A DNA stretch of 64,000 nt from a bacterium (GTDB lineage Bacteria > Patescibacteriota > Patescibacteriia > JACQRZ01), in NCBI GenBank assembly GCA_030688365.1, contig JAUYIE010000004.1:5931-69930 (forward strand), written 5' to 3'. Position numbers and translations under genes: made by a program. Below are positions 2,762-64,000 of this stretch, one piece after another. The notes beneath the pieces were generated by a model. That model had not been told where the DNA came from. It saw only the letters and a list, made by a program, of their open reading frames with translations, and made no database searches. Positions within the stretch are counted from its first letter, which is position 1. Every line of letters starts with the position of its first letter.

Positions 2762-4276
2762 CTAATGAAAATTAATTAAAAAAGAAATTGCATTTGCTAT
2801 TCTTTCAAGTGTTTTTTCTTTACCTAATGCGTCAGCTATCTCAAATGGTCCGGGGCTATTCTGTTGTCCGCTCAATGCTACCCGTAGTGGCCATAAAACA
2901 GCACCATTTTTGAGTCCTTTATTGGTAATTTCAGTTTTAATGGCCATTTCAATAGAAGGTGTCGTAAAATCAGCATCTTTCATCTGTTTTATTATATCAC
3001 GTCCGAGTCCTAGCATTTCGCAAGTCTCTTCTTTGGATTTATCTTTCCATGATAACAAGTGCGGGTCATATTCCAATGTGTCAGTCAGACAAAATGCAAT
3101 ATGCGGCGGAATCTCGGAAAGGACTTTTGCTCTGTCTTGCTCAAGGGCAATATATTTTTCTAGCAAATCCCGCGATATAGTTTCCTTATTTGCATTGATA
3201 ACAAAGCTTGTTGCCTTCATTATATCATCTTTTGGTAATTCAAGATATCCTTGATCAAACAAGTGTGGAAGTACACGACTGGTGAGTTCATTAATTGGAA
3301 GCGCGCGAATGTAGTGACTATTTAACCATTGTAGTTTTTCAATATTAAAAATTGCTCCAGATTTTTGGACTCGTTCAAAACTAAATTGCTCAATAAGCTC
3401 GGGTAATGAAAAGATCTCCTGTTCGGTACCTGGATTCCATCCCAGTAGCGCCAAAAAATTTATCAATGCCTCCGGTAAATACCCTTCTGCACGGTAATCT
3501 AACAGTGAAACTTTATTTTTTCTTTTACTCATTTTTGATCTATCGGGATTGAGAATCAATGGAATATGAGCATATATCGGAGTAGAAAAACCAAGTGCTT
3601 TGATAAATAACACCTGTTTGGGAGTATTTGAGAGATGTTCTTCTCCACGGATTACATGAGTTATCTTCATCTCGTGATCGTCAATGACCACTGCAAGGCC
3701 GTACAGCGGTGTGTGCGTATCTTTTGCAACAACTACATCACCAATCAACGTGCCGTCAAATTCAACGCGACCACGAACAAGATCTTCAAAATGAATTTTT
3801 TCTGGCGGTATACGAAAACGAAGTACCGACGATGCACCACTTTCAATTCGTTTTTTTACCTCATCATCTGTCAAATGTGCACATGTTCCATTATAGATTT
3901 GTGGATTCTTATTTGATACATTCTGTTTTCGTTGAAATTCAAGCTCTTCTTCGGTACAAAAACAGTGGTAAAGTGATCTTTGATCGAGTAATTTCTGAAG
4001 ATACCGCTCATATATATCAGTTCTTTCACTTTGTCTATACGGAGCGTATTGTCCACCACAATCAGGTCCTTCATCCCAATCCATACCAAGCCACTTAAGT
4101 CCTTCCATGATATCATCCTCATATTCCTTTTTTGATCGTTCTTTGTCGGTGTCTTCAATCCTGCACACTACCACGCCGTTATTACGACGAGCAAATAAAA
4201 TATTTACGAGCACCGTACGGACTGTGCCAATATGAAGAAATCCGGTTGGCGATGGCGCAAAGCGTGCTCGTATCAT
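2762..4276 (-). CDS. gltX: Glutamyl-tRNA synthetase
   Basis: N-terminal RFAPSPTGFLHIG (HIGH motif) and KMSKRK (KMSKS motif). 504 aa. Confidence 0.9.
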   Translation of the reverse strand: MIRARFAPSPTGFLHIGTVRTVLVNILFARRNNGVVVCRIEDTDKERSKKEYEDDIMEGLKWLGMDWDEGPDCGGQYAPYRQSERTDIYERYLQKLLDQRSLYHCFCTEEELEFQRKQNVSNKNPQIYNGTCAHLTDDEVKKRIESGASSVLRFRIPPEKIHFEDLVRGRVEFDGTLIGDVVVAKDTHTPLYGLAVVIDDHEMKITHVIRGEEHLSNTPKQVLFIKALGFSTPIYAHIPLILNPDRSKMSKRKNKVSLLDYRAEGYLPEALINFLALLGWNPGTEQEIFSLPELIEQFSFERVQKSGAIFNIEKLQWLNSHYIRALPINELTSRVLPHLFDQGYLELPKDDIMKATSFVINANKETISRDLLEKYIALEQDRAKVLSEIPPHIAFCLTDTLEYDPHLLSWKDKSKEETCEMLGLGRDIIKQMKDADFTTPSIEMAIKTEITNKGLKNGAVLWPLRVALSGQQNSPGPFEIADALGKEKTLERIANAISFLINFH

Positions 4277-4329
4277 ATTTCATATATGTTATTGACCTCC
4301 TAAAAAGGAGGCCAATAACGGCTTATCAG

Positions 4330-5475
4330 TTAAGGGGTTTGTATCGGATATCCACTATTGACATCTTGTAAACCACCGGCAGGCTGAAGATTGAGAGTAT
4401 CTAGCGATGAAGCAGGTTGATTATCTAAAGATGATGGTACTGTAGTATTCGATCCTTGAAGTATACGTTGTAAGTCATCTGCAGACGTGGGACAAATGTC
4501 AGGCGTAAACGTATATACTATCTTTGGAAGGAAGGTAAATAGACCATCTACGTTTAGTGCCGCATTTTGTGCAATAGGAAGCAATATTGATACCACCCCA
4601 CCTTTAAACAGATTTGCAAGGTTGGTTCTCGCTTGACATGTCAGTAGTGATGATATCCAAACAAATATTCCAATGACCAATCCGACTATGGCAAAAAATA
4701 TGAGTGAATGTTTTTCCCCTTTAAAATAATGAAATTCCTGATTACGTGGTAATGCTACCAAATCCTCATAACGAATATAATCAAATATTACGAAAAACGG
4801 AATTACGAGAATCATGTACGCCCCAAATAACAACGCAAACAAGACTCCACCTATTACAGGGACTGCAAGAAAAAGAAGGATAATAAGTGAAATGGCAAAA
4901 ATGATTCCCACAAGACCAACATAGCGTCCCAGAGTTGCAAACCAGACTCCACGGGTTATATAACGACTGTACGCGATTGCTTCAATACCTCGTTTTCCTT
5001 CTCCTACCAAAATATATACGCCAAAATACAGCCATACAACCATTAATATTGGTAAAACAATGGTAATAGAACTTCCATATGTTGCAAGACCACCAAGTAT
5101 ACTTATCCACAATAGCGATAAGTATACTGGTTTTGCTTGCTCAAGTGCTTGTTTGATTGTCAGAATTGATTCGTTTCTATGCTTTACTACATGTAGCATT
5201 GCGGTAAAAATCAATGCATATCCAAAATATGATGCAAATTGAATCAACGTGTTTATAACCTCAATAAAGGATTTTATTGTTTGCGATGAATGTAAAACGA
5301 GAAAATTCAATAACGACGTGAGCCCCAATGCGATCAAAAAAACAATTCCAATACATATACTCAAGGAGACCAGCGGACTCATCAATCGCTTATATGTTAC
5401 CCATGTTCGTCCGAGTAATGATCCCATCCCGGGAAGGTTCACAACCGGGACTGCTCCTGATGGCAGTTGTTCCAT
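4330..5475 (-). CDS. Polytopic membrane protein of unknown function
   Basis: 381 aa with many hydrophobic helices. Its stop is adjacent to the gltX start, suggesting an operon. Confidence 0.6.
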   Translation of the reverse strand: MEQLPSGAVPVVNLPGMGSLLGRTWVTYKRLMSPLVSLSICIGIVFLIALGLTSLLNFLVLHSSQTIKSFIEVINTLIQFASYFGYALIFTAMLHVVKHRNESILTIKQALEQAKPVYLSLLWISILGGLATYGSSITIVLPILMVVWLYFGVYILVGEGKRGIEAIAYSRYITRGVWFATLGRYVGLVGIIFAISLIILLFLAVPVIGGVLFALLFGAYMILVIPFFVIFDYIRYEDLVALPRNQEFHYFKGEKHSLIFFAIVGLVIGIFVWISSLLTCQARTNLANLFKGGVVSILLPIAQNAALNVDGLFTFLPKIVYTFTPDICPTSADDLQRILQGSNTTVPSSLDNQPASSLDTLNLQPAGGLQDVNSGYPIQTP

Positions 5476-5570
5476 AGCTAAAAGTATTTAAAAATAAAAT
5501 ATGACAAGCAATATTTTCGGGCTCAAGTAAATCGTTCTTAGAACATAGAAAATCCAGCTCAGAAACGCTG

Positions 5571-5646
5571 TGGTGCGCCCAGCAGGAATCGAACCTGCAA
5601 CCACTGGCTTAAAAGGCCATTGCTCTGCCGATTGAGCTATGGGCGC
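5571..5646 (-). tRNA. tRNA-Lys (anticodon UUU)
   Basis: The reverse complement folds as a cloverleaf: GCGCCCA acceptor, GCTC/GAGC D-stem, anticodon loop CUUUUAA, TTCGATT T-loop, 3' CCA encoded. Confidence 0.85.
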
Positions 5647-5830
5647 ACGTGATTCCTCATAAATAATATACTAAAGTTGGTAAAATGACAAGTTTTTCAG
5701 TGTCAATTTCGCAGTTATAAGTAAAACGCTACTTATATTTCAACGCATTCAAGGGTAATATTTTTTGATTGAAGGACGGGGTTCATTTCTACTTTTTAAA
5801 ATCGTAAATTTTTACTTCAATATTATTAAT

Positions 5831-5853
5831 CGTATCATATTGATACGATTATG
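5831..5853. promoter_or_regulatory. Perfect 10-bp inverted repeat (AATCGTATCA-TAT-TGATACGATT) upstream of dnaB
   Basis: Palindrome read directly from the sequence, about 75 nt upstream of the dnaB start. A candidate operator. Confidence 0.3.
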
Positions 5854-5925
5854 CCATGATTTGGTCAGCTTGCACCTATCCCCTTCTTGGCTTACAATAC
5901 CTGCGCACTTATCCTCTATCATTTT

Positions 5926-7344
5926 ATGGCCAACGAGCTTATTGACCGCATTCCACCTCATAGTGTCGAAGCCGAGCAATCCTTGCTTGGGGCGCTTTTG
6001 ATTGATAAAGAAGCGATCCACAAGATGGCGGATATGATCACGGATGAGGATTTTTACAAAGATATCCACCGTATTATTTTTAGCGCTATGGTGGATCTGT
6101 ATGCCAAGCATGACCCGATTGACCTTTTGAGTCTTGGTAACCGTCTTGAAGAAAAGAAACAACTCGAAATGATTGGCGGACGAAGTTATCTCATCGGGCT
6201 TGCCAATAACGTCCCAACGGCCAGCAATGTGGTGCATTATGCTGAAATTGTGCAGAAAAAGTCTACCCTCCGCCGTCTGCAGGCGGCTGCGTCATATATC
6301 ATGAAACTATCATTTGAAGAAGAAAATGACGTGGAAGTTACACTGGATGATTCTGAACGAAAGATATTTAGCGTATCTCAACGACTTTTGAAAAAAGCAT
6401 TTACGTCTATCCGCGAGGTATTGAGCGATGCGTTTGAGCGCATTGACGACATGCATAAAGAAAAAGGCAAGCTTCGCGGGCTCACCACCGGATTTTCTGA
6501 TCTTGATAAAAGTCTTGCAGGACTACAAAAATCCGACCTTTTGATCTTGGCGGCTCGTCCAAGTGTGGGAAAAACATCGCTTGCACTTGACCTAGCACGT
6601 AATGCCGCACTCAATGCGAACGCTTCAGTGGGTTTTTTTAGTCTTGAAATGTCTAAAGATCAACTTGTGGATCGTATGATTTGTGCACAAGCCGGAGTAG
6701 ATCTATGGAAAATGCGTACTGGTAAACTTTCTGACCGCCCTGAATCAGATGATTTTAATCGTATAGGGACAGCGATTGATCAACTCTCAAATGCCAAAAT
6801 ATTTATTGATGATACACCTTCCGCCAACATCATGGAAATACGCACAAAGGCACGACGACTAAAAAGTGAACATGGTCTTGATTTGATCATACTTGACTAT
6901 CTACAGCTGATGGAGGGACGTGCTGGAGGCAATGATGGCAGGACACAGGAAGTCTCTGAAATCAGTCGAGGACTCAAGTCTATCGCTCGTGAGCTTGATG
7001 TCCCATTTATCGCCCTTTCACAGCTCAATCGTGCGGTAGAATTATCCAAACCGGCCATTCCCAAAATGGCACACTTACGTGAATCCGGCTCTATCGAGCA
7101 AGACGCAGATGTCGTGTTGTTTATCTATCGTAAGGCGGCAGATCGAAATTACCGACCTGATCAACTGAACGATCAAGATAAGTACACAGCAGAGATTCAC
7201 ATCGCAAAACATCGTAATGGTCCGACCGGTATCGTGAGTCTCTTTTTTGATGAACAACGCGCCTGTTTCCGTAATCTGGATAGACAACATGGACAGGAAG
7301 AAGCCGGTGTCTCCAGTGCGGATTCATTTGATATGTTTTCGTAA
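5926..7344 (+). CDS. dnaB: Replicative DNA helicase DnaB
   Basis: N-terminal PPHSVEAEQSLLGALL motif. Walker A (ARPSVGKTS). RecA-like C-terminal domain. The likely true start is ATG at 5926, inside the 5887 ORF. Confidence 0.9.
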   Translation: MANELIDRIPPHSVEAEQSLLGALLIDKEAIHKMADMITDEDFYKDIHRIIFSAMVDLYAKHDPIDLLSLGNRLEEKKQLEMIGGRSYLIGLANNVPTASNVVHYAEIVQKKSTLRRLQAAASYIMKLSFEEENDVEVTLDDSERKIFSVSQRLLKKAFTSIREVLSDAFERIDDMHKEKGKLRGLTTGFSDLDKSLAGLQKSDLLILAARPSVGKTSLALDLARNAALNANASVGFFSLEMSKDQLVDRMICAQAGVDLWKMRTGKLSDRPESDDFNRIGTAIDQLSNAKIFIDDTPSANIMEIRTKARRLKSEHGLDLIILDYLQLMEGRAGGNDGRTQEVSEISRGLKSIARELDVPFIALSQLNRAVELSKPAIPKMAHLRESGSIEQDADVVLFIYRKAADRNYRPDQLNDQDKYTAEIHIAKHRNGPTGIVSLFFDEQRACFRNLDRQHGQEEAGVSSADSFDMFS

Positions 7345-36744: not shown

Positions 36745-39700
36745 TTAGGGTTTGGTAGTACAATATGGGTTTATTGTACTGAAATGCTGTGGATCTTCAA
36801 GATTCATACATATTTCGTATCCAGTACCATCTGAAGTCTTATACGTATAGATATGAGAATCTTTCTGCGCCTTAGCAGCATCTGTTCGTAGAGCACTTTC
36901 AACATCGTTCCCATATCCAAAGTCACCATTTTGTGCGTTCCAACATGTCTTTTGATCAAATCCGGAGGGACACAATGGAAATGCCTTGCCTTCTACTTTT
37001 GCCAGTGGGTCAGCGGGAAGGGCTACACGTAATGCGTTACCTAAGGTACTTTGCCAGGACGGCCATGCTGATGTTGATTGTCCTTTTATAAAACTTCCGG
37101 AAGCAAGGGCAGGATACGGTATCGCATTATTTTTAGCATATTTACTCAACAAATACTGCATATCAGCCATATCTGAGAGACGATGTAAATCTCTTCTCAT
37201 TATATCAGGATTGGTATCATGTGCAACACTCATCACCAATTTCATATTTTGCAAAAGACTCGCAAAGATTTGTTGTGTACTACTTTTCGCGCCTACGTTA
37301 TAGGAAAATGAAAGAATATAAAACACGTTATCCGTTCCTTGTATGAAAATGTATACACCCGTACTGTCACGAACAGCCTGATAACCATCAACGAGCGTTG
37401 AAGAAGGGCTTTCTTTCCCTGATTGATGTACGCGATACCATTGATATGCTGAAAGCATATCATTATTTTTCGCAATACGAACTGCAATGACATCACTATT
37501 TTTGGTATCTACAATATTTAAATCCCCTTTTGTAGAATCAGCAAACGGAAAAATAAATTCTTGCTGAAATATTCCTCGATCAGTACTATTGGGATCTACC
37601 TGTATCGGCGGCTTTAGTAAACCAGGGAGTAAATTTGTTGATGTATTTCCTCGGCAATAGTATGACTTAAAATTATATGCGGCAAGACCAGAAACATCTG
37701 TACTGTCAAATTCCCATAGTTCTGAACATAAGTAACTTTTAATTGGAAAATGCTCGGTCTTCACTGGTCCTTTTGTTTGGCACTCTAGCTCCTTTTGAGT
37801 ATCCGTGATTTTGTCCGGAGGATCACATGTTGGATCACGTTGGGTCAACGTTACACTCATACTTGCATTACCACTCGTAGGCATTGCAGTCACCTCAAGA
37901 ATTGATTGATTAGTTGCACCACTAAACTGAATAATACTGTCACCTGTTAATTTCCACTCATATGATTGGACTACTATTTCAGAATCATCATAGGACATAC
38001 CAACTGCCTGATACACATGCTGATTTCCTGGTTTAAAAGGATTTTGATCTCCAATACCACAATCATTACCGGCACAACTGATAAAATCAACATCATTAGC
38101 GGGTAATGAGTCACCATTAATGTAAATTAAAACGTGATCCAAAGGTGCAATCTCATCTCCAACATCAACCGGAATCAAAGAACCGTCGCCCCCATTGTCA
38201 GGAGGTGTGCTGTTGTCAGGAGGTGTGTCGTTGTCAGGAGGTGTGTCGTTGCATGTATATTCAGTAGATGTGACTTCAATAGTATCTAATGTACTATTTT
38301 TATTTGTATCAAGTCCTGTTTCAATTTTTCTTCCTGCATATGGACAATTACTTCCTTTCGGTTCATATGTATCTCTCACAAGACTAAAAATCTGATTATC
38401 ACCAGACCCTGAATTGCACGCGTATTCAGTAGAGCTCACTTCGCTGGAATCCAACGTACCATTTCTATTTGTATCAAGACCAGTATCAGTCCTGCGTCCT
38501 CCATTTTGACAATGGGATCCTGGTGGTTCATCACTGGCAGTAATGAGACGATTTATAGGTAACGGAGACGAACCACCATTATCATTGTCTCCAGACTGAT
38601 TGGTTGGAGGAGGAGTATTGCACGCATATTTTGTAGAAGTGACCTCGTTAGGATCCAAGATACCATCTCTATCAGTATCCAGTCCTGACACTGTCTTCCT
38701 TCCTGCATACGGACAATTACTACCACTTGGTTCGTATGTATTTCTCACCAAATTATAGAGTGTATTGTTCCCGGAACCCGCATTACACGCATACGAGGTA
38801 GCAGTTACTTCTCTAGAATCCAGCACACCATTTCTATTTGTATCCAGACCGGCATCAGTCCTGCGTCCTCCATTTTGACAATGAGATCCTCTTGGCTCGC
38901 TGGTCACTCTTACAAGATTATTGAGGGGAAGTGTGGACGATCCTTGATTGGATGTTGGAGAAACGCCGTTAGGGGTAATTCCTCCCGTAATTTCAATATT
39001 ATATTTTTTATTGCACTGCAACTGTGTCTTTGGAATAAAACGAACTTCTGTGCGGGCATCATCACCGATTCCAACAGTGTTAAATTCAAAATGTCCATTT
39101 GCATTTGGTACTATTCTCATCCTGCTGCGCGCGCTTTCCTCATTGATTACCTGATTAAATGTCACCTTAATAATGCTATTGCAATAAGCGTTAGGAGATT
39201 TTGGTTGGACGTCAATCACTGCCACCTTCTTGGGTGTAGTGGCACATTTTGCATTTACACAATTATTGGATGAACATTGTTGTGGACTATAACACTTTCC
39301 TCCGATCGGCAATCCTCCTTGAACACATTTAGACTCAAAACAGTTATTTGAGATACATTCGTTATTCGCACTACAACTTTCTCCAATTACCTTCAATACT
39401 GATTTACATGTACCTGAACTACACCATAACCCTTCCTTGCATTGAGTGTCCCATGTACAAGCAGCTGTTTCTCCAAGGTCCCCACGCACGCATTTATTCT
39501 CTTCACCACATACACCAGAACTACATTCTTCATTTTTTGAGCAAGATTCATTTAATTGCTTCAATTCACCTGTAAAAAAACTCCAGCGGTATGTACAAGA
39601 AATCACTGTGTTCACGCATGTACCAGTGGTTCTAAATGAACCATCACTACAACAAGTCCGCGACTGATCGCCTGCTGCTACATTACACCTGCCCACCTCA

Positions 39701-51903: not shown

Positions 51904-52080
51904 TTAAGACTTGTCTGCTAGCCTATCTTTAATGAAACCATTTTTCTTCATAAAATTGACGACCGGTTTTGCACATATTTCACACAATTCCTTTCCATTA
52001 CTAAACCATCCTATGCGGACATATATCACGGCACCGTCGGAAATCTCTTTATGACAAATATCACACTGATGTGTCGTCAT
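51904..52080 (-). CDS. Small zinc-ribbon protein (CxxC...CxxC)
   Basis: MTTHQCDICHKE...CEICAKP, 58 aa from the ATG at 52080. Lies between the hicB and vapC modules. Confidence 0.45.
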   Translation of the reverse strand: MTTHQCDICHKEISDGAVIYVRIGWFSNGKELCEICAKPVVNFMKKNGFIKDRLADKS

Positions 52081-52087
52081 AGACAAG

Positions 52088-52140
52088 CATGTTAATGTTT
52101 AGAATCCAAACGTAGCACACGAAAAAATTGAAGGCAAATG
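52088..52140. repeat. Copy 1 of an approximately 53-bp direct repeat (catgttaatgtttagaa...acgtagcacacgaaaaaa.tga.ggcaaatg), about 85 percent identical to the copy at 52925-52978
   Basis: Direct comparison of the two segments. Together they bracket vapBC. Confidence 0.7.
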
Positions 52141-52197: not shown

Positions 52198-52617
52198 TTA
52201 TACATCCTTTGGTTCGACACGTCTTACCTTTAACTTTTCAAACTCCTTGTCGTAAGATACCACCACGCCATTCTTGATTTCAAGTACCTGCGCGGCTATC
52301 AAAGTGTCAATGAATTTAACTGAATTCCCTTGATACAATTCGAGAGCTTGGAAAAAATCTCCCCCGTCTTTTATGCTCAAATACGACATTGCCACGATAC
52401 CTCCCAATAATTCAACAACATCTTCTTTTTTGAGTTTGTAGAAACTCAAACATGTCCACACAAACTCTGCCAATACGAGTTTGGAGGTGGTTGCTCGAAG
52501 TGTCCCTTCCTGTATGCGCTCGAATAGTCTTTCACAGTCTTTCGCCATCGCTACGTCATCTTTGACGACAAACCGAAGAAAGATATTGGTGTCAAGGAAG
52601 TATCTATTTCCTTGCAT
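52198..52617 (-). CDS. vapC: PIN-domain toxin VapC
   Basis: FLDTNIF N-terminus and conserved acidic residues of the PIN fold. Overlaps the vapB stop. Confidence 0.85.
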   Translation of the reverse strand: MQGNRYFLDTNIFLRFVVKDDVAMAKDCERLFERIQEGTLRATTSKLVLAEFVWTCLSFYKLKKEDVVELLGGIVAMSYLSIKDGGDFFQALELYQGNSVKFIDTLIAAQVLEIKNGVVVSYDKEFEKLKVRRVEPKDV

Positions 52618-52843
52618 ATTTTTTCTCCATACTTGCCCGTGCTTTGAGCGGATTGGTGCGTTTTTTAGGAGTAATGCGACGACCGGACGAAACGAAGTTA
52701 TTCAAGGGAATGAGACGCGCTGCCTTGTTCCCTTTTTCAATCTGCACAGCTACGCGACTATTTTTTCCTAAACGAAGCATATCCCTGATTTCTTTAGGGA
52801 TCGTAATCTGCCCTTTTTGTGTAACGGTGGTATGGTAAGGCAT
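52604..52843 (-). CDS. vapB: AbrB/SpoVT-type antitoxin VapB
   Basis: QKGQITIPKEIRDMLRL swapped-hairpin motif. 14-nt overlap with vapC. Confidence 0.8.
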   Translation of the reverse strand: MPYHTTVTQKGQITIPKEIRDMLRLGKNSRVAVQIEKGNKAARLIPLNNFVSSGRRITPKKRTNPLKARASMEKKYARK

Positions 52844-52879
52844 ATGGGTAAAGTAATACTTACTGTGTATTCCTTACTT

Positions 52880-52908
52880 ATTATGAAACATCCACTTTTG
52901 CATGTCAA
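52880..52908 (-). promoter_or_regulatory. Near-consensus sigma70-like promoter for vapBC (TTGACA-17-CATAAT on the minus strand)
   Basis: Minus strand reads ttgacatgcaaaagtggatgtttcataat, about 40 nt upstream of the vapB start. Confidence 0.4.
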
Positions 52909-52924
52909 GCGGATCAATGAGAAA

Positions 52925-52978
52925 CATGTTAATGTTTAGAACATTAACGTAGCACACGAAAAAAACTGAGGCAAATGT
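52925..52978. repeat. Copy 2 of the approximately 53-bp direct repeat; contains a perfect palindrome GTTAATGTT-TAG-AACATTAAC
   Basis: 9-bp inverted arms with a 3-nt spacer, located just upstream of the vapBC promoter and just downstream of the RT1 stop. The palindrome is degenerate in copy 1. Confidence 0.7.
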
Positions 52979-52979
52979 G

Positions 52980-53984
52980 TTACCCTGTCTCATCCAGTAG
53001 CCAATGATCGTTGAGTATACTTGTCCTTATTTTGTGGGTATTCCCATGTGATAACAGTCCGAGATATGACTGAAGCGTCGCTTCGTTAGAATCATGAGAC
53101 AACTTTTTGAACATTCGCCGTCTTGTTGTCGCCCGCAGTACATGATGATCGGCAAAGTGCACCCAGCCCAAATAATCTACCCCTGACGCAATGGTACGAA
53201 TGCTGACTTTATTGGGATGCAATGAAAGCTTGAGCTTGTCTGATAAAAAATCCTGTATCGGATCAATAGTGCGCTCGAGTATACTTCTATCCTGTGACAA
53301 CAGAACAAAATCATCGGCATATCGGATATAATGTGGCACTCGCATATCGTGCTTGATGTATTGGTCAAATAAATTCATGTATATATTGGCAAACAGTTGC
53401 GATGTAAGATTCCCCAATGGAAGTCCTTTATCACTAGACGATTTAAAACTCCCGATTATTCTTGAAAGCAACCACAATATCTTTCTGTCAGGGATATAAT
53501 CCTCCAATATACAATATAAAACGGCATGATCTATGCTCGCAAAGAATTTTCGTATATCACATTTGAGAACGTAACATGTACGAGTATTGTTCCTGCTTAC
53601 CTTGCACGAGTAAGATGTAAATCGATCCATTGCGCTGTGAGTACCTTTGCCCACACGAGCTGAAAATGAATCAGCGATAAACTTTGTTTCAAAAAAAGGA
53701 TATAATATACGGTGAAGAGCGTGATGTACCACCCGATCGCGCACCTGCGCCTTGTGGATTTCCCGTGATTTTGGATCATTGATATAAAAACGTGTATACG
53801 CGCCATGCATGTACTCACCTGACAATAGCTCCTCATGCAACGCATTGATGTTTTCAAACAGATGATCTCGAAACGCGCGGACATCCCACTTGTTCCGTTT
53901 CCCACATTCAAACTCGAGCCACGCTTCAATCAAATTGTCGTGCGAAATAATATCTTCAAATGTATGTCCCAACAATATTTTCAT
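52980..53984 (-). CDS. Diversity-generating retroelement reverse transcriptase (DGR RT1)
   Basis: RT domains 1-7, with the DGR-specific LPLGNLTSQ (GxxxSQ) replacing the group II intron QGxxxSP, plus YIRYADDFV. 334 aa. A cognate TR/VR pair lies nearby. Confidence 0.9.
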   Translation of the reverse strand: MKILLGHTFEDIISHDNLIEAWLEFECGKRNKWDVRAFRDHLFENINALHEELLSGEYMHGAYTRFYINDPKSREIHKAQVRDRVVHHALHRILYPFFETKFIADSFSARVGKGTHSAMDRFTSYSCKVSRNNTRTCYVLKCDIRKFFASIDHAVLYCILEDYIPDRKILWLLSRIIGSFKSSSDKGLPLGNLTSQLFANIYMNLFDQYIKHDMRVPHYIRYADDFVLLSQDRSILERTIDPIQDFLSDKLKLSLHPNKVSIRTIASGVDYLGWVHFADHHVLRATTRRRMFKKLSHDSNEATLQSYLGLLSHGNTHKIRTSILNDHWLLDETG

Positions 53985-54002
53985 AAAAATCCATTAAGGA
54001 AT

Positions 54003-54010
54003 CCCCCCCC
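54003..54010. repeat. Poly-C homopolymer (8 nt) in the divergent RT1-avd1 intergenic region
   Basis: cccccccc read directly. The equivalent tract in DGR2 is 10 nt. Confidence 0.9.
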
Positions 54011-54031
54011 AAGGCGTCACAAATTCCTATT

Positions 54032-54388
54032 TTGCAAAAAGCCGTAGAAACATACAAACTATGGCATTTGTTCTTACAGCAGATGCCTCGTCTTACTCGA
54101 TTTAGTCTTGGTACAAAAATCGACATATTGTTTACCGACACGTTACAGCTCATGCTCTCTGCGAAATACGCACCACGAGAACAAAAGCTGGAATACATAC
54201 GAACATTGTGCACCAACATAGATGCCATCAAATTCTTTTTGCAAATCGCGTTTGAGCTCAAGGCATTAAGCGCTAAAAAATATTCCAGTGTGTCCATACC
54301 TCTGGAAGAGATCGGAAAAATGGTCGGCGGGTGGAAAAAACAGCTGGAAAAAGAAAATCCTGCCACAAAAACTTCATGGCAGGAATGA
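54032..54388 (+). CDS. avd: Avd-like accessory variability determinant (four-helix-bundle protein, TIGR02436-like), predicted TTG start
   Basis: About 118 aa helical protein with C-terminal IPLEEIGKMVGGWKKQL, matching the Avd/23S-IVS four-helix-bundle family. Paralog at 62879-63295. Adjacent to RT and TR. Confidence 0.8.
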   Translation: MQKAVETYKLWHLFLQQMPRLTRFSLGTKIDILFTDTLQLMLSAKYAPREQKLEYIRTLCTNIDAIKFFLQIAFELKALSAKKYSSVSIPLEEIGKMVGGWKKQLEKENPATKTSWQE

Positions 54389-54399
54389 TACGAGAGAGT

Positions 54400-54523
54400 T
54401 GCTCGAACGCAAGGAAACGATAGTTGTCATTCCAATCACCAGCCAGCTTGTTGAGGTTGAGCTTACGCTTGTCGTTGTTCCTGTTCAACACAGGAGCACA
54501 CAGATCACCGTTCTCATTGCGAA
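54400..54523 (-). repeat. DGR1 template repeat (TR1), 124 bp
   Basis: Aligns base-for-base (offset +499) with 54899-55022. All 20 mismatches are T in TR on the plus strand (A on the minus strand) versus C/G/A in VR. Confidence 0.85.
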
Positions 54524-54785
54524 AATGCACGGAATATCATCTTTGACACCACCCTTTGACTCGCCATCTGGCACATTCTCGGGGTTGAATCGTATTCGGG
54601 GCATTTCAGCCCGCCAATATTCCGCACCAAGTCTCTTCGTAATCGCGAAGCAATCGGGCACACGCTGTATGGTAACAAAAAACGCCATACATTCCGGCTT
54701 CCCAAAAAGCTCCAGAGTTCGACCGCCATGAAGTCGTAACGACATGGATACTTCTCTACTTTCCAAAACTCAGTATATCACGCTG

Positions 54786-54821
54786 AATAAAAAATCCCTT
54801 AATAGTTTGTTCTATCAAGGG
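54786..54821 (-). terminator. Rho-independent terminator downstream of the DGR1 target gene
   Basis: Minus strand: CCCUUGAUAG-aacaaa-CUAUUAAGGG stem (one G-U pair) followed by AUUUUUUAUU. Confidence 0.5.
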
Positions 54822-54876
54822 AAGATAAGGGTCTAAAAATTCAAATTCTATTTCTAAACACTGAGGGACCCAGAGT

Positions 54877-55518
54877 CTAAGTGCCTTCCGAAGAAACCTG
54901 CTCGAACGCAAGGAAACGATAGTTGCCACTCCAATCACCAGCCAGCCCGTGGAGGCCGAGCAACCGCCAGTCGTTGAGCCCGTCCAACACAGGAGCACAC
55001 AGAACACCGCGCCCATCGCGAATTTCAATACCCATCAAACAAACGATTGGATATTTTAATTGTTCATCGGGGTTGTTTATGGCGTACTGTAATATTCTGG
55101 CAGGAGTAGCCTTGATCAAACCTTTTTCTTCGATCTTTTTTTCTGCATCTTCAGTCGAAATTTTTCCCAGATCAAGGATACGGACTTTTAACATTTCTAC
55201 ACCGACAGCTGGATCTATCGGAAACGTTTTTTCATTGATGTGACTGTTTACATAATAAAAATTTACGATTTTGATTTGATCGGAAAAACTCTTGTTGTTA
55301 TCAACTATTATGAGTCCAGAATTATCAACTTTCTTCGAAATTTCATTCAATGAACCGACAATAATTTGAGCAACCTTTTTCCTGCGGTCTGTGTCTTTCA
55401 AATACGCGTCTATGTGGTCATCTGTACCACCTTCATCCAGAATATCATTAAAGATAATTTTCACTACCTCAAAGATCTTTCCGAACAGTTTCAGATAACC
55501 ACTTGTTTTTTTAGCCAT
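54877..55518 (-). CDS. DGR1 variable (target) protein, 213 aa, no signal peptide; VR encodes the C-terminal roughly 41 aa
   Basis: Full ORF. The C-terminus IRDGRGVLCAPVLDGLNDWRLLGLHGLAGDWSGNYRFLAFEQ corresponds to the TR-encoded NENGDLCAPVLNRNNDKRKLNLNKLAGDWNDNYRFLAFEQ. Confidence 0.85.
   Translation of the reverse strand: MAKKTSGYLKLFGKIFEVVKIIFNDILDEGGTDDHIDAYLKDTDRRKKVAQIIVGSLNEISKKVDNSGLIIVDNNKSFSDQIKIVNFYYVNSHINEKTFPIDPAVGVEMLKVRILDLGKISTEDAEKKIEEKGLIKATPARILQYAINNPDEQLKYPIVCLMGIEIRDGRGVLCAPVLDGLNDWRLLGLHGLAGDWSGNYRFLAFEQVSSEGT
54899..55022 (-). repeat. DGR1 variable repeat (VR1)
   Basis: See TR1. The 3' end (low coordinate) has a 26-nt invariant block (putative IMH) ending 22 nt before the stop codon. 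Confidence 0.85.
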
Positions 55519-55724
55519 TTTAATGTACTCCTATTTTCGCCTACTCCTTGCTTTTCCCCTATTTTAGGGTTAGACCTAGAGCTTGCACTTATATATAACA
55601 ATACTAAGATACTTGCATATTTTACCGATTTTGTCAAGATTATGACCACCAAAAGCTTATATTTCGAAAGTGAACGAGTATTATTGAGTATGAGAAAGAG
55701 CTGACAGATATACTGAAGGGCTGT

Positions 55725-55842
55725 TTGATTTCTCTTTTAAAAATTTTATGAGCGAGTCAAGTGTTGGGAAGAAAAGTTGAAACGAGCGAATAGAAGTGAG
55801 GAGGGAGACTTACCTACTCGTTACCACCACCGTCGCCGAACG
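55725..55842. mobile_element. MITE-like element, copy 1: 118 bp with perfect 19-bp terminal inverted repeats (TTGATTTCTCTTTTAAAAA)
   Basis: Left TIR 55725-55743, right TIR 55824-55842 (exact reverse complement). The core is about 80 percent identical to the reverse complement of the core at 61784-61883. Confidence 0.7.
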
Positions 55843-55891
55843 CTTTTTAAAAGAGAAATCAAATACCCCGCTCAAGCAGGACAAACACTCC

Positions 55892-56650
55892 CTATCTCCC
55901 CTTCACCTCAATCCCCACCGGACAATGATCTGATCCCATGATATGTGGTAAGATCGCCACGCTTTTTATAGACGGTAAAAATGATTCTGATACGCAAAAA
56001 TAATCTATCCGCCAGCCAATATTTCTCTGACGTGCCCCTGCCATATAACTCCACCATGTGTACTTATCAGGACTCTCATCAAAGGCGCGGTAACTATCTA
56101 CAAACCCAGCAGAGACAATATTATCAAATCCACCCCGTTCTTCATCAGTAAATCCCGCATTACGACGATTGCTTGCTGGGTTAGCCAAGTCTATCTCTTT
56201 ATGAGCAACATTGAGATCTCCCCCAAAGATCACCGGCTTTTTTGCTTCCAGATATTTGAGATACGCCAAAAAATCTCGATCCCATTGCATACGATATGAT
56301 AGGCGTACGAGATCGCGACGTGAGTTGGGGGTGTACACCGTCACAAGATAGTATTGTGGAAATTCAAGAGTGATGACTCTCCCTTCTTGATCATGACCCG
56401 CGATACCGATACCATGCGCCACGCCGATTGGTTTTTTTCTACTAAAAATGGCAGTCCCCGAGTACCCTTTTTTCTCCGCTGAATTCCAATAATGATGGGG
56501 GTATTCTTTCAAAATCTCATCCACCTGCGATTGGTGCGCTTTTGTTTCTTGGATACACAAAACATCGGGTGCTTCCGCATCCACAAAATCCAAAAAACCT
56601 TTTCCGAGAATAGCTCGGATGCCATTTACATTCCACGAAATAATTTTCAT
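55892..56650 (-). CDS. xth: Exodeoxyribonuclease III (AP endonuclease)
   Basis: [14 protein letters not shown]-terminus and EEP-fold catalytic motifs (IQETK, GDLNV, DH). Confidence 0.9.
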
Positions 56651-59763: not shown

Positions 59764-60327
59764 TTACAAACTCAATTCAAGTCCTTTTTTGATAGTTTCA
59801 AAAACTTCTGGAAGCGCTTTTTTTTCTGTCGCAGAAAACTTACCCAAAACAAACTTTTCTCCTGATATTGTCACTGGTCTTTCAGATGCGACACCAATAC
59901 GCATACGACTAAATTCTTTCGTACCGAGCAAATCAATTATATTTTGCACACCATTGTGTCCTGCCGATGAACGGTTGTGACTTATTTTTATTTTTCCAAA
60001 TGGGATATCTAGTTCATCATGGCTAATCCAAATGTCTTTTGTGATATCGATCGTGCGATGATAGGAAAGATATTTTTTTACCGATGTGCCGGAAAGATTC
60101 ATGAACGTCAATGGCTTGAGAAATGTTATTGACTCATGCTTACCATCATCCCTTGTATATTTTGTTTCGTATGCGATATAAGTCTTGTCTTTTGAGATGC
60201 TTGGTTTTTCGATACGGCCTTCTTCCAGCCATTTTTCCATCAAATAATCTACAGCAAGAAAGCCCGCGTTGTGGCGGGTCGTTTCATACTCTGTGCCAGG
60301 ATTTCCTAAACCTACGATAAGTTTCAT
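59764..60327 (-). CDS. pth: Peptidyl-tRNA hydrolase
   Basis: MKLIVGLGNPG..YE.TRHNAGF signature. Confidence 0.9.
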   Translation of the reverse strand: MKLIVGLGNPGTEYETTRHNAGFLAVDYLMEKWLEEGRIEKPSISKDKTYIAYETKYTRDDGKHESITFLKPLTFMNLSGTSVKKYLSYHRTIDITKDIWISHDELDIPFGKIKISHNRSSAGHNGVQNIIDLLGTKEFSRMRIGVASERPVTISGEKFVLGKFSATEKKALPEVFETIKKGLELSL

Positions 60328-61694
60328 GCCGATTTCTTTTTACTTTTTTCTTCGGTGACGACCATGACGGGCGTCCCTTGGAAACTATACAACTCGCGAA
60401 GACGATTTTCCAAATACCGAAGATACTCATATCTAATACTAGCACGGCTGTTGACAGAAAGTATAAACGTCGGCGGACAGCCCAGTCGCTGTTTGATGCC
60501 AAAAATGCGCGGTCGTTTGCGTCCCATCGGCCAGATCGGCGGTTGACGTGTCATTGCTGTTTTGAGAAACGCAGTGAGTTCTTCTTGTGGAATTTCTTTC
60601 TCGCGCTCTTTCTGCACTTCAATTATTATATCAAGAATTTTCTTAACGCGCTGTTTTGTGAGGGCGGACACAAAGATATCCGGCGCCCATTTTATAAACT
60701 CAAAAAACTTATGAAAATATTTTTTGTACGCATCACTACTTTTGACTGTCTTTTCTTCCACCAAATCCCATTTGTTTACTACCAACACGATACCCGCACC
60801 GGAAGAGACAGCAATATCAGCAAGACGGCTTTCCTGTTTTGACGCGGTAGTCATGGCATCCAGTACCAAAAGTGCTACATCTGCTTTTTCAATATTTTTG
60901 ATACTGCGTTTAACTCCTTCGTATTCTATACCATGCTGAACTTTGCTTTGCTTACGGATACCGACGGTGTCGATAAGGATGATTGGCTGATCTTCGTACA
61001 CAATAATAGTGTCATGCGGTTCACGAGTGGTATGGGCGATAGGACTGGCAATGACGCGTTCTTCATCAAGAATCGCATTGAGCAAGGATGACTTACCGAC
61101 GTTTGTACGACCAACGATAGCAACTTTGATCGGTGCTTTTGTCGGTGCGGGTGTAGCGACGCGTTTGAGTAATGGATGTACTTCGTCCAAAAGGTCGCCA
61201 ACTCCTCGTCCGCTTGCGGCTGAAACACTATATCCGGAACCGATACCCAGTTTGTTCCAATTTTGTGAAGATAAAGCAATGTGTTCTTTTTGTTTGTCTA
61301 TTTTATTGATTACCAAATACACAGGCGTCTTGGTTGCTTTTTGGATGACTTTGAGATACGCACGGTCATCAGGATGGATGTCTTCTTTGCCATCTACGAT
61401 AAACAAAATAACATCTGCTTTTTTTAGCATGGCAAGCGCGTGGGCATAAGTTTTTTCCTCAATCTCATCAGTAGGCTTTGGCACAAAACCACCGGAGTCT
61501 GCCACCTGAAAGGTAAAATCACGCCAGTTGCCGATCCCATAGTTCACGTCACGCGTAGTTCCCGCGTCAGACGAAATAACGGCCTTTTTCTCTTCTATCA
61601 AACGATTAAACAGTGTTGATTTGCCAACATTAACCCGTCCTACAAGAGCAACAAGCGGGTATGGATTCTCTTTTTGTATGGTGCGGACTGGCAT
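60324..61694 (-). CDS. der: Ribosome-biogenesis GTPase Der (EngA)
   Basis: Two tandem G domains (GRVNVGKSTLFN; GRTNVGKSSLLN) and a KH-like C-terminus. Confidence 0.9.
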   Translation of the reverse strand: MPVRTIQKENPYPLVALVGRVNVGKSTLFNRLIEEKKAVISSDAGTTRDVNYGIGNWRDFTFQVADSGGFVPKPTDEIEEKTYAHALAMLKKADVILFIVDGKEDIHPDDRAYLKVIQKATKTPVYLVINKIDKQKEHIALSSQNWNKLGIGSGYSVSAASGRGVGDLLDEVHPLLKRVATPAPTKAPIKVAIVGRTNVGKSSLLNAILDEERVIASPIAHTTREPHDTIIVYEDQPIILIDTVGIRKQSKVQHGIEYEGVKRSIKNIEKADVALLVLDAMTTASKQESRLADIAVSSGAGIVLVVNKWDLVEEKTVKSSDAYKKYFHKFFEFIKWAPDIFVSALTKQRVKKILDIIIEVQKEREKEIPQEELTAFLKTAMTRQPPIWPMGRKRPRIFGIKQRLGCPPTFILSVNSRASIRYEYLRYLENRLRELYSFQGTPVMVVTEEKSKKKSA

Positions 61695-61764
61695 ATACGA
61701 GCATTAAAGCATGAAATTGGGAGAAAAGCGAGAGGAAAGAGGTGGTGTATCTCGAGCAGGGTAT

Positions 61765-61902
61765 TTGGTTCTTCTTTTAAAAAGCGTTCGGCAACGGTAC
61801 TGGTAATGAGTGTGTTAATCTCCCTCCTCACTTCTATTCGCTCATCTCAATATTTTCATCGTACATTTGACTCGCTCATAAAATTTTTAAAAGAAGAACC
61901 AA
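61765..61902. mobile_element. MITE-like element, copy 2: 138 bp with perfect 19-bp TIRs (TTGGTTCTTCTTTTAAAAA), inverted relative to copy 1 and overlapping the RT2 3' end
   Basis: Left TIR 61765-61783, right TIR 61884-61902. The last 15 codons of the RT2 ORF (FGSSFKNFMSESNVR) are encoded by element sequence. Confidence 0.7.
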
Positions 61903-62899
61903 ATACCTGCCATCTTACGTCACTCAAACCCCGTCTTATCTTCGCAGTGTTCCCGTGACTCAATAATCCCATATATGACTGCATTTGAGCAGGATCATTC
62001 TTTCCTGCTTTGATATGACGGAACATCCTCTTTTTTGTCGCTGTCCTCAACACTCGATGATCAGGAAAATGTACCCAACCGAGGAAATCAACACCCGATG
62101 AAAATGTTTTGAGAAAAAGCTTGTTGGGATGAAGCTGAAGATGTAGCCGTGAAGATAGAAACTCCTGAATCATCGGGACGAGTGTCTCTAACCATTCTAT
62201 GTCAGATGACAATACCACAAAATCATCAGCGTAACGTATGTAATACCGAGTGTGGGCGGTATGTTTCATAAACTGATCCAATTCATTCATATACACGTTG
62301 GCAAACACCTGTGATGTAAGATTGCCCAGTGGTAAACCGACACCGCGATGAGTCGTATGGAAACTACCGATGATGCGATACAAAAGATCAACAATCCGAG
62401 AATCGGGTATTGATAATTTCAATATATCAATAAGTACCTCATGCGATATAGACGCAAAAAACTTGCATATATCGCACTTGAGTGCCCATGCGGTACGAGT
62501 ATGATTCCTTGAAACGACATATTCCATAGAACGGAATCGATCAAGCGCTTTATGCGTTCCCTTTCCATCTCTGCATGAATACGAATCATGAATAAACCGC
62601 GTATCAACATACGGATACAATATACGATAAATTGCGCGATGGAGTACTCTGTCACGCACCGACGCCTTATGTATCTCCCGTGGTTTTGGATCATTGATGC
62701 GAAACGCCTGGTATGCACCGTGTCTGTATCTATTGGTCGCAAGGTCATGATGCAGTATAATAAGATTACTCATGAGATTCTGCTCAAATTCAATAACATC
62801 ACTGCGACAGGATTTTCCTATACGAAATTCTCGCCATGCCTCAAGGAGATTCTCAAGAGAAATAATATCTTCATACGTATGAATGAATTTTCCGGACAT
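61856..62899 (-). CDS. Diversity-generating retroelement reverse transcriptase (DGR RT2), paralog of RT1 with an element-derived C-terminal tail
   Basis: LPLGNLTSQVFANVYM and YIRYADDFV motifs. About 60 percent identity to RT1 across the full length. Confidence 0.9.
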   Translation of the reverse strand: MSGKFIHTYEDIISLENLLEAWREFRIGKSCRSDVIEFEQNLMSNLIILHHDLATNRYRHGAYQAFRINDPKPREIHKASVRDRVLHRAIYRILYPYVDTRFIHDSYSCRDGKGTHKALDRFRSMEYVVSRNHTRTAWALKCDICKFFASISHEVLIDILKLSIPDSRIVDLLYRIIGSFHTTHRGVGLPLGNLTSQVFANVYMNELDQFMKHTAHTRYYIRYADDFVVLSSDIEWLETLVPMIQEFLSSRLHLQLHPNKLFLKTFSSGVDFLGWVHFPDHRVLRTATKKRMFRHIKAGKNDPAQMQSYMGLLSHGNTAKIRRGLSDVRWQVFGSSFKNFMSESNVR

Positions 62900-63295
62900 A
62901 TCACTAATGTTACCCCCCCCCCGAGGCTTTTACCAGTCCTGCAAAAGATAAAGTCAGTATATATCCTCTGGCATGGATATTATCAGGTACTGCCAAAAAC
63001 TCATCGTTACAGTATTGGGCTTCGCATTGATACTTTATTCGTAGAGCTCATTGAAGCCACCTCCATAGCAGGATTCCTCTCTCGTGAAGAAAAACAACCA
63101 CTCGTGCGCATCGCTATCAGAAAAAATGACACCATAAAAATCTTTCTCATGGTGCTCTGGGAAACAGGATCACTAGAAACAAAACGATATGTCACACTTT
63201 CACTACCCCTAGAAGAAATCGGCAGAATGTTGGGCGGATGGAACGGACAACTACAAAAACAAAACTCTCCCGTCATTGCGAGGGGAGAGAAATGA
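62879..63295 (+). CDS. avd: Avd-like accessory protein (paralog of avd1), start uncertain (ATG 62879 overlapping the RT2 start on the other strand, or CTG 62939)
   Basis: C-terminal LPLEEIGRMLGGWNGQLQKQN aligns with avd1 IPLEEIGKMVGGWKKQLEKEN. N-terminal (L)QKIKSVYILWH aligns with avd1 (L)QKAVETYKLWH. Confidence 0.7.
   Translation: MNEFSGHITNVTPPPRLLPVLQKIKSVYILWHGYYQVLPKTHRYSIGLRIDTLFVELIEATSIAGFLSREEKQPLVRIAIRKNDTIKIFLMVLWETGSLETKRYVTLSLPLEEIGRMLGGWNGQLQKQNSPVIARGEK
62913..62922. repeat. Poly-C homopolymer (10 nt) between the RT2 start and the avd2 core
   Basis: cccccccccc read directly. Lies inside the avd2 ORF if translation starts at ATG 62879, and upstream of it if translation starts at CTG 62939. 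Confidence 0.9.
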
Positions 63296-63301
63296 AGAGA
63301 G

Positions 63302-63436
63302 TTGCGACGGGCAAACAACAAGCGATTGTCGGGATTGAGCATGTTGTCGGGATGAATGTAGTTCGTGTTGAGCCAGAACTCACCATCGTTGAAATTCACG
63401 TTGAACACGTTGGGATCGCCATCGGAGTCCGTAATG
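63302..63436 (-). repeat. DGR2 template repeat (TR2), about 135 bp, starting 7 nt after the avd2 stop
   Basis: Aligns at offset +498 with 63800-63934. 15 of 16 mismatches before the ragged 5' end are T in TR (plus strand) versus N in VR. Confidence 0.8.
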
Positions 63437-63515
63437 TATACCATGCCATCTGTGCCACTGCCTTATGATTACTCACAAAGCTGTATCGAATCTGCGATCA
63501 ATAATCGCCCAGCAT

Positions 63516-63543
63516 AATATACCAAGTATCTTCGTTTTTTGAA
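63516..63543 (-). promoter_or_regulatory. Candidate promoter for TR2 RNA (minus strand TTCAAA-16-TATATT), about 70 nt upstream of the TR2 5' end
   Basis: Read from the sequence. Weak match to the consensus. Confidence 0.25.
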
Positions 63544-63727
63544 TAATCTCAATCACCACACTACCCCCAATCGTAATCAAGGATATTCTGGATGAAGGGA
63601 TACTGGCTTCGGCCGCGGGAAACCATAATCTCCCGCACGATTCACCTAGCGCCACAATCAGTATACCCTTAATTTTCCAAAAAAATATTCCTCGCCATAA
63701 TTATGGTTTGGAATATTATTCAATATT

Positions 63728-63742
63728 AGGTCTAAGAGCTCG
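63728..63742. other. GC-rich hairpin (GCTCGC-ttc-GCGAGC) about 60 nt downstream of the VR2 3' end
   Basis: Perfect 6-bp inverted repeat. A second hairpin (GCGGGA-n10-TCCCGC) lies at 63621-63642. Confidence 0.35.
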
Positions 63743-63795
63743 CTTCGCGAGCAAGTAACAAAGTGCAGAAGAGTTAATCCTCCAAAAACTAAGAG

Positions 63796-64000
63796 CTACT
63801 TGCGACGGGCAAACAACACGCGAGCGTCGGGATCGAGCATGCGGTCGGGATGAATGTAGTCCGCGTAGAGCCAGAACTCACCACCGTCGAAATGCACGTT
63901 GAACACGTCGGGAGCGCCAGCGGAGTCCGTAATGGTATCCATGGCGAGAATAGCCCAGTTTCTGTCGTCTTTTTCTGCTTTTTTCAAAACGACTTCTATT
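63796..64000 (-). CDS. DGR2 variable (target) protein, C-terminal part only; the ORF is open to the window edge and VR2 encodes the last roughly 45 aa
   Basis: C-terminus ITDSAGAPDVFNVHFDGGEFWLYADYIHPDRMLDPDARVLFARRK matches the TR2-encoded ITDSDGDPNVFNVNFNDGEFWLNTNYIHPDNMLNPDNRLLFARRN. Stop TAG at 63796-63798. Confidence 0.7.
   Translation of the reverse strand, partial: IEVVLKKAEKDDRNWAILAMDTITDSAGAPDVFNVHFDGGEFWLYADYIHPDRMLDPDARVLFARRK
63800..63934 (-). repeat. DGR2 variable repeat (VR2)
   Basis: See TR2. Asn (AAC/AAT) codons in TR correspond to D/H/Y/A/R codons in VR. Confidence 0.8.

Follow-up and report, generated by a model that had tools for sequence, protein, structure and literature searches.

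The DNA analysed here, a stretch of 64,000 nt referred to below as the window, carries two copies of a short element, designated E, one of which overlaps the 3' end of RT2, a DGR reverse transcriptase gene. With moderate confidence, E is interpreted as a lineage-specific dispersed repeat with palindromic ends, of the MITE, ERIC or Correia kind, which lengthened the RT2 open reading frame by 15 codons without consequence. The unit comprises a terminal inverted repeat of 22-26 bp, a core of 100 nt and a short tail on one side only, for a length of ~155 nt. E is a real but fairly ordinary feature.

Both copies were delimited from their inverted repeats and from their alignment to each other. E2, the copy at RT2, occupies positions 61751..61907 with its forward strand on the minus strand, and consists of arm L (61907-61884), the 100-nt core (61883-61784), arm R (61783-61760) and a short tail to 61751. 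E1 lies at 55718..55876 with its forward strand on the plus strand, its arms at 55718-55743 and 55844-55869, its core at 55744-55843 and its tail running to 55876. A second, inverted copy with terminal inverted repeats had been proposed from the 19-mer TTGGTTCTTCTTTTAAAAA, which is found exactly at 61765-61783 on the plus strand and at 61884-61902 on the minus strand; this repeat is indeed perfect and extends to 24 bp (61760-61783 and 61884-61907), longer than the 19 bp first noted. A version of the 19-mer with 3 mismatches, TTGATTTCTCTTTTAAAAA, is found at 55725-55743 and 55844-55862, within an E1 inverted repeat of 26 nt at 92% identity (55718-55743 and 55844-55869). When up to 3 mismatches were allowed, the 19-mer had 4 matches in the window, as compared to 0.04 expected from shuffled sequence. 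The spacing between the arms is exactly 100 nt in E1 and in E2, and these two rank at the top of the 4 inverted repeats of this size class found in the window.

E1 and E2 are reverse complements of each other over 153 nt at 82% identity (84% in a MAFFT alignment), close to the figure of about 80% originally given for the core. The similarity stops at one arm but continues for ~9-11 nt past the other arm (CCCYGCTCRAG); because it extends beyond one arm only, E represents an asymmetric unit of ~155 nt. A covariance model built from E1 and E2 only, and used to scan the window with filters off, scored E1 at 195.6 bits and E2 at 198.6 bits, versus 12.9 bits for the next best match in the window. 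The two copies found in the window are situated in unrelated contexts and in opposite orientations. No reading frame stays open across both E1 and E2, and most of the differences in the best frame are non-synonymous; a small protein was rejected on these grounds, and E is non-coding. A 281-nt direct repeat with 75% identity (38249-38529 and 38618-38898, spacing of 369 nt) was also observed in the window.

RT2 (61856..62899, minus strand) encodes a protein of 347 aa, the closest solved relative of which is the Bordetella phage reverse transcriptase bRT (8ub7). The RT2 ORF ends in DVRWQVFGSSFKNFMSESNVR followed by the stop; its C-terminus reads HGNTAKIRRGLSDVRWQV and then FGSSFKNFMSESNVR, the latter encoded by E2. 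As originally predicted, the final 15 codons, together with the stop, derive from the element (61856-61903), and the element-derived 3' end as a whole (61856..61905, minus strand) consists of 2 nt of a Val codon, the 15 codons for FGSSFKNFMSESNVR and a TGA stop. Read-through of this TGA under code 25 was considered and rejected, since TGA is a genuine stop in this genome and is used as such elsewhere in the window, for example in the ATGA overlap of der and pth. The paralogous DGR reverse transcriptase RT1 (52980..53984, minus strand, 334 aa) has a native C-terminus, HGNTHKIRTSILNDHWLLDETG, which ends in NDHWLLDETG before the stop.

The original prediction further held that E2 replaces the native C-terminal tail of RT2, and here the comparison with homologs led to a different conclusion. 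Among the 120 best homologs of RT2, the tail FGSSFKNFMSESNVR was found only in an identical protein (P0001). P0002, the nearest ortholog (locus L007, 74% identity), ends in GHGNTRKIRQQITDKMF, its stop is followed by a HigB gene and no element was found near the reverse transcriptase gene in this locus. RT2 retains 14 native residues after the HGNT motif and P0002 has 12, while the tail following HGN[TA] in 99 homologs has a median of 17 residues, ranges from 5 to 75 and shows no conserved sequence. Moreover, the alignment of RT2 to the solved Bordetella phage DGR reverse transcriptase (8ub7), an alignment of the kind that had been proposed for assessing the importance of the tail, ends at RT2 residue 303, before the tail. 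As 14 native residues precede the element-derived ones, the tail is unconserved and the structural alignment ends earlier, E2 appends 15 residues to RT2 and does not replace a functional tail. Given the natural variability of the C-terminal tail, this extension is probably harmless and probably has no effect on reverse transcriptase function.

Support for the E2 junctions, another of the checks that had been proposed, was obtained from the Logan assembly of run SRR13727534, which possibly shares its reads with the source MAG and is thus not fully independent of it. One contig (L006) spans positions 64000 down to 61821, from RT2 into E2, and another (L012) spans 61847 down to 53749, from E2 into der; both are 100% identical to the window, and both E2 junctions are therefore reproduced. 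The two contigs overlap by only 27 nt (61821-61847), inside E2 and within an invariant purine-rich block, so that this assembly breaks in E2 but passes through E1 unbroken. The break suggests that the sample may contain an additional copy closer to E2. The copy-2-specific variants (G, CT / AG, C) are present in both arms of E2, and the 27-nt overlap also bears copy-2-specific bases (AGATG); the two halves of E2 therefore belong together.

E1 is located between xth and the target gene of the first DGR, and E2 between RT2 and der, with all four genes on the minus strand. The stop of xth (exonuclease III, 55892..56650) is 15 nt from the tail of E1, which lies ~200 nt upstream of the start of the DGR1 target gene (54877..55518) containing VR1. 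Directly downstream of E2 is der, encoding a GTPase (60324..61694), with a leader of ~41 nt that reaches to about 61735 and is conserved in a relative (L022). A pyrimidine-rich stretch that follows E2 was considered as a part of E and was rejected, being the native, conserved leader of der. Each copy is placed at a border between a DGR-bearing variable island and a conserved block composed of der, pth, dprA, topA and xth, and at both borders the tail of E points toward the core block and the tail-less arm toward the DGR. Taken together, the placement of both copies beside a DGR cassette, each with the same end toward it, looks non-random.

Patescibacteria relatives with ~86% identity to the TopA of the host (MDP2656116.1) have the der-pth-dprA-topA-xth block in common. 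Homology to three of these (L017, L021 and L022) ends exactly at the xth stop, and homology to L022 ends ~41 nt upstream of the der start. E was not found downstream of xth in any of the three, nor upstream of der in L022. The DGR islands and E are jointly missing from the relatives, and a precise empty site could not be defined because the neighbouring genes differ too. Where DGRs flank the core block here, the relatives carry a racemase gene and RhuM, a 619-aa ORF or a gene for a 325-aa secreted protein. In L017, four copies of an unrelated repeat of ~165 nt were observed at positions 3325-6988, starting right after the xth stop; they include an inverted pair of 123 nt at 100% identity (3767-3889 and 4325-4447), each of the four copies starts with a TTGACA-like motif, and they surround a 594/619-aa ORF without a Pfam match.

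The two DGRs in the window are complete (52980-55518 and 61856-64000), are 8.9 kb apart and have the same orientation. In both, avd is divergent from the reverse transcriptase gene, with the start of avd2 (62879) overlapping the start of RT2 (62899), and the divergent junction contains a C homopolymer (8 C at 54003-54010 and 10 C at 62913-62922). The changes from TR to VR are almost exclusively at adenines in both DGRs and the reverse transcriptases and Avd proteins match the expected families; judged from their sequences, both DGRs look functional. Palindromes or hairpins are located ~55-115 nt downstream of the stops of both VR-bearing target genes (63681-63720 and about 54797-54822), and could be terminators or DGR target-recognition hairpins. 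E2 had also been suggested to lie where a 3' UTR structure of the TR-RT transcript would be expected, a notion that the other DGR reverse transcriptase loci do not bear out, as these have a spacer of 34-82 nt after the stop with no comparable hairpin. On the far side of DGR1 no E was found, and positions 52850-52980 hold a different repeat. Two 64-nt direct repeats with 81% identity, each with a palindrome, are found at 52077-52140 and 52914-52977, and a PIN/VapC toxin-antitoxin module (52198-52850) adjoining the RT1 stop is located between them.

Both copies of E showed folding z-scores of -4.1 to -6.7 relative to shuffled sequence, on both strands. In the terminal stem, E1 and E2 differ at 3 positions and all three differences are compensated on the opposite arm (A-U to G-C, U-A to C-G and C-G to U-A); a fourth compensated pair is found in an internal helix, A[C/U]GAG...CUC[G/A]U, and no pair is broken by any of the differences between the copies. 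The 28 mismatches between E1 and E2 are clustered and leave invariant runs of 28, 25 and 20 nt (permutation p about 6e-4). The clustered mismatches and the compensated changes together indicate that the inverted-repeat symmetry and parts of the core are being maintained. The compensated changes, which come from two sequences only, would fit selection on an RNA structure and co-evolution of the ends of a transposon subfamily alike. Two G-U wobbles (alignment A2, columns 2/143 and 60/101) are tolerated only on the forward strand, which weakly favours that strand. The forward strand of E is sense to its neighbours at E2, and antisense to both neighbour genes at E1.

These observations could be taken to mean that E is a strand-specific structured non-coding RNA, either an sRNA gene or a cis-regulatory RNA, acting from the plus strand for copy 1 and from the minus strand for copy 2, with the conserved internal blocks as its functional parts, the long stem as its closing helix and the overlap with RT2 as incidental. 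The strongly negative folding z-scores, the four compensated pairs with none broken, the tolerance of both wobbles on the forward strand only and the three invariant blocks separated by variable loops would all be accounted for; nevertheless, we regard this explanation as unlikely. No match to Rfam 15 was found for E1 or E2, either at the gathering threshold or at E-values up to 10, and on this basis a hammerhead or other ribozyme, 6S RNA and SRP RNA were ruled out. Neither copy has a promoter-like site before, or a terminator after, its forward strand, and a promoter or terminator of its own was thus rejected for E. In addition, the antisense placement of E1, the existence of two paralogs at 84% identity with no homolog found elsewhere, which is atypical for an RNA gene, and the occurrence of compensated terminal-repeat changes in transposon subfamilies, set beside covariation that is thin when drawn from two sequences, all weigh against an RNA gene.

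A closer tie to the DGRs is a less probable explanation still. E could be a part of the DGR cassettes, either as a terminal repeat marking their limits and perhaps mobilising them (tail-E'...RT-avd-TR-target...E-tail) or as a cis element needed for DGR function. Each of the two copies in the 64 kb lies directly beside a DGR, at the RT2 stop for E2 and ~200 nt upstream of target1 for E1, with the tail-less arm facing the cassette and the tail facing the core block in both cases, and relatives lack the DGR islands and E together. The two positions are, however, not equivalent, being on the target side in DGR1 and on the reverse transcriptase side in DGR2, and DGR1 has no E at its other end. A position conserved with respect to TR, VR or RT, as expected of a DGR accessory cis element, was thus not found, and neither E nor a comparable border hairpin was found in four other DGR loci with related reverse transcriptases (L007, L018, L019 and L020). 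The targets and upstream regions of DGR1 and DGR2 are unrelated, and the known RNA elements of DGRs, namely the Sp region and a hairpin downstream of VR, occupy other positions. The more specific proposal that E is a terminal structured repeat which marks the limits of DGR cassettes and contributes to moving them into core operons, or to insulating them from these, is rated a little lower again, as improbable. Least probable of all is that E2 reflects an assembly mis-join at a repeat, with RT2 and der not truly adjacent, or that the two copies are inert leftovers of a segmental duplication with neither mobility nor function. The contig break inside E2 with its 27-nt overlap is the pattern commonly seen when an assembly graph branches at a repeat, and would fit a mis-join; however, the arms of E2 and the overlap carry the copy-2-specific bases described above. 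The flanks of E1 and E2 are unrelated, and the copies are therefore not a segmental duplication, while the compensated changes argue against neutral decay.

Searches for further copies covered several collections. In IMG/VR, a 24-mer from block B had 0 matches, and a gapped terminal-repeat pattern together with blocks A and C yielded chance matches only. The 19-mer had 5 chance matches among GTDB genomes, each of only 19-22 nt, and a 20-mer from block A had 3 matches in JGI metagenomes, none of them related. The best JGI match (L010, 31/32 nt) was rejected as a copy of E, as it has no second arm and its contig, which contains a BRR2-like ORF, is eukaryotic. No match to E was found among phages and plasmids by blastn, a 49-aa through-frame peptide had no match among 1.84 billion protein representatives, and no insertion sequence with E-like ends (GGTATTTGGTTCTTCTTTTAAAAA) was found in the window or in the scanned collections.

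The interpretation of E as a dispersed repeat with palindromic ends draws on features of known element classes. The MITE-like character put forward in the original prediction holds with regard to the terminal inverted repeats, the short unit (<300 bp) and the absence of a common ORF. No target-site duplication was seen with the 24-26 bp arms of E1 and E2; the arms are flanked by TA...TA at E2 and by TG...TA at E1, and these bases also pair within the stem. With an ambiguous target-site duplication, no parent insertion sequence found and two copies in the 64-kb window, full membership in the MITE class is not established, and a decaying MITE would not be expected to have the one-sided tail or the invariant internal blocks. 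As in ERIC-like elements, E lies between co-directional genes in either orientation, has 3+1 compensated pairs and is predicted to be transcribed. Other structured elements were considered as well. An integron attC site, defined by RYYYAAC...GTTRRRY core sites, extrahelical bases and a nearby integrase, was rejected; the ends of E, GGTATTTGGTTC and GAACCAAATACC, have GTT first and AAC last, which is the wrong order, and the stem is perfect without bulges and has no adjacent integrase. A retron msr/msd was likewise rejected, as E is on the wrong side of the reverse transcriptase gene and RT2 is of the DGR type.

Under the dispersed-repeat interpretation, E would be, or would formerly have been, non-autonomously mobile, and copy 2 would have come to lie against the 3' end of RT2, such that the RT2 frame runs through the outer arm to a stop inside E2 and gains 15 residues. 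Since both copies are located between co-directional genes, the perfect stem of 22-24 bp would form in read-through transcripts of RT2-der and of xth-target1 whichever way the element is oriented. The most likely activity of E would then be that of a double-stranded RNA hairpin acting as a determinant of transcript processing or stability, for example as an RNase III substrate between a DGR and a core operon; this RNA-level role is inferred from the predicted stem and the arrangement of the genes.

What these data describe is a small palindromic repeat that remodels the 3' end of a DGR reverse transcriptase gene of a CPR bacterium, where the encoded part of the protein is tolerant of variation. 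In its present form the finding is of little importance, beyond the caveats for annotation that the C-terminus of RT2 is element-derived and that the repeat may fragment assemblies. If E were systematically tied to the borders of DGR cassettes, it would be of more interest and would bear on the chromosomal spread of DGRs among CPR genomes; were the improbable delimiting role true, these CPR DGRs would be discrete mobile cassettes bounded by hairpin-forming inverted repeats of 155 nt.

Among known systems, the cis-RNA elements of DGRs comprise the Sp region, located between TR and RT, as well as a hairpin or cruciform downstream of VR. E resembles these in being a structured nucleic acid near DGR components, but differs in that it is placed 3' of the reverse transcriptase gene in one cassette and 5' of the target in the other, lies next to neither TR nor VR, and is missing at other DGR loci. 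The Correia elements of Neisseria (NEMIS/CREE), like further bacterial MITEs such as RUP and Nezha, are non-coding, measure 100-160 bp and have terminal inverted repeats of ~26 bp; they are found beside or overlapping gene ends, where they can extend ORFs, and once transcribed, their stems are cleaved by RNase III. Correia elements in particular number in the hundreds, contain an IHF site and show a TA target duplication. E shares with this group its small size, terminal inverted repeats, lack of coding capacity and extension of an ORF, and departs from Correia elements in its ambiguous TA duplication, its one-sided tail and a parent insertion sequence that was not found. ERIC (IRU) and the related YPAL sequences are non-coding imperfect palindromes of about 127-170 bp that occupy transcribed intergenic regions, in one orientation or the other, and fold into a long stem within the mRNA; to our knowledge, neither a transposase nor a clear target-site duplication has been identified for them. 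E differs from these in having no sequence similarity to them, in its CPR/Patescibacteria host, in the number of copies (2 seen for E, tens to hundreds for ERIC) and in its architecture, with a perfect outer stem of 22-24 bp around a largely unpaired 100-nt core, whereas ERIC is palindromic over nearly its full length. Like ERIC/IRU and YPAL, E is a small, non-coding, palindromic intergenic element that is found in either orientation.
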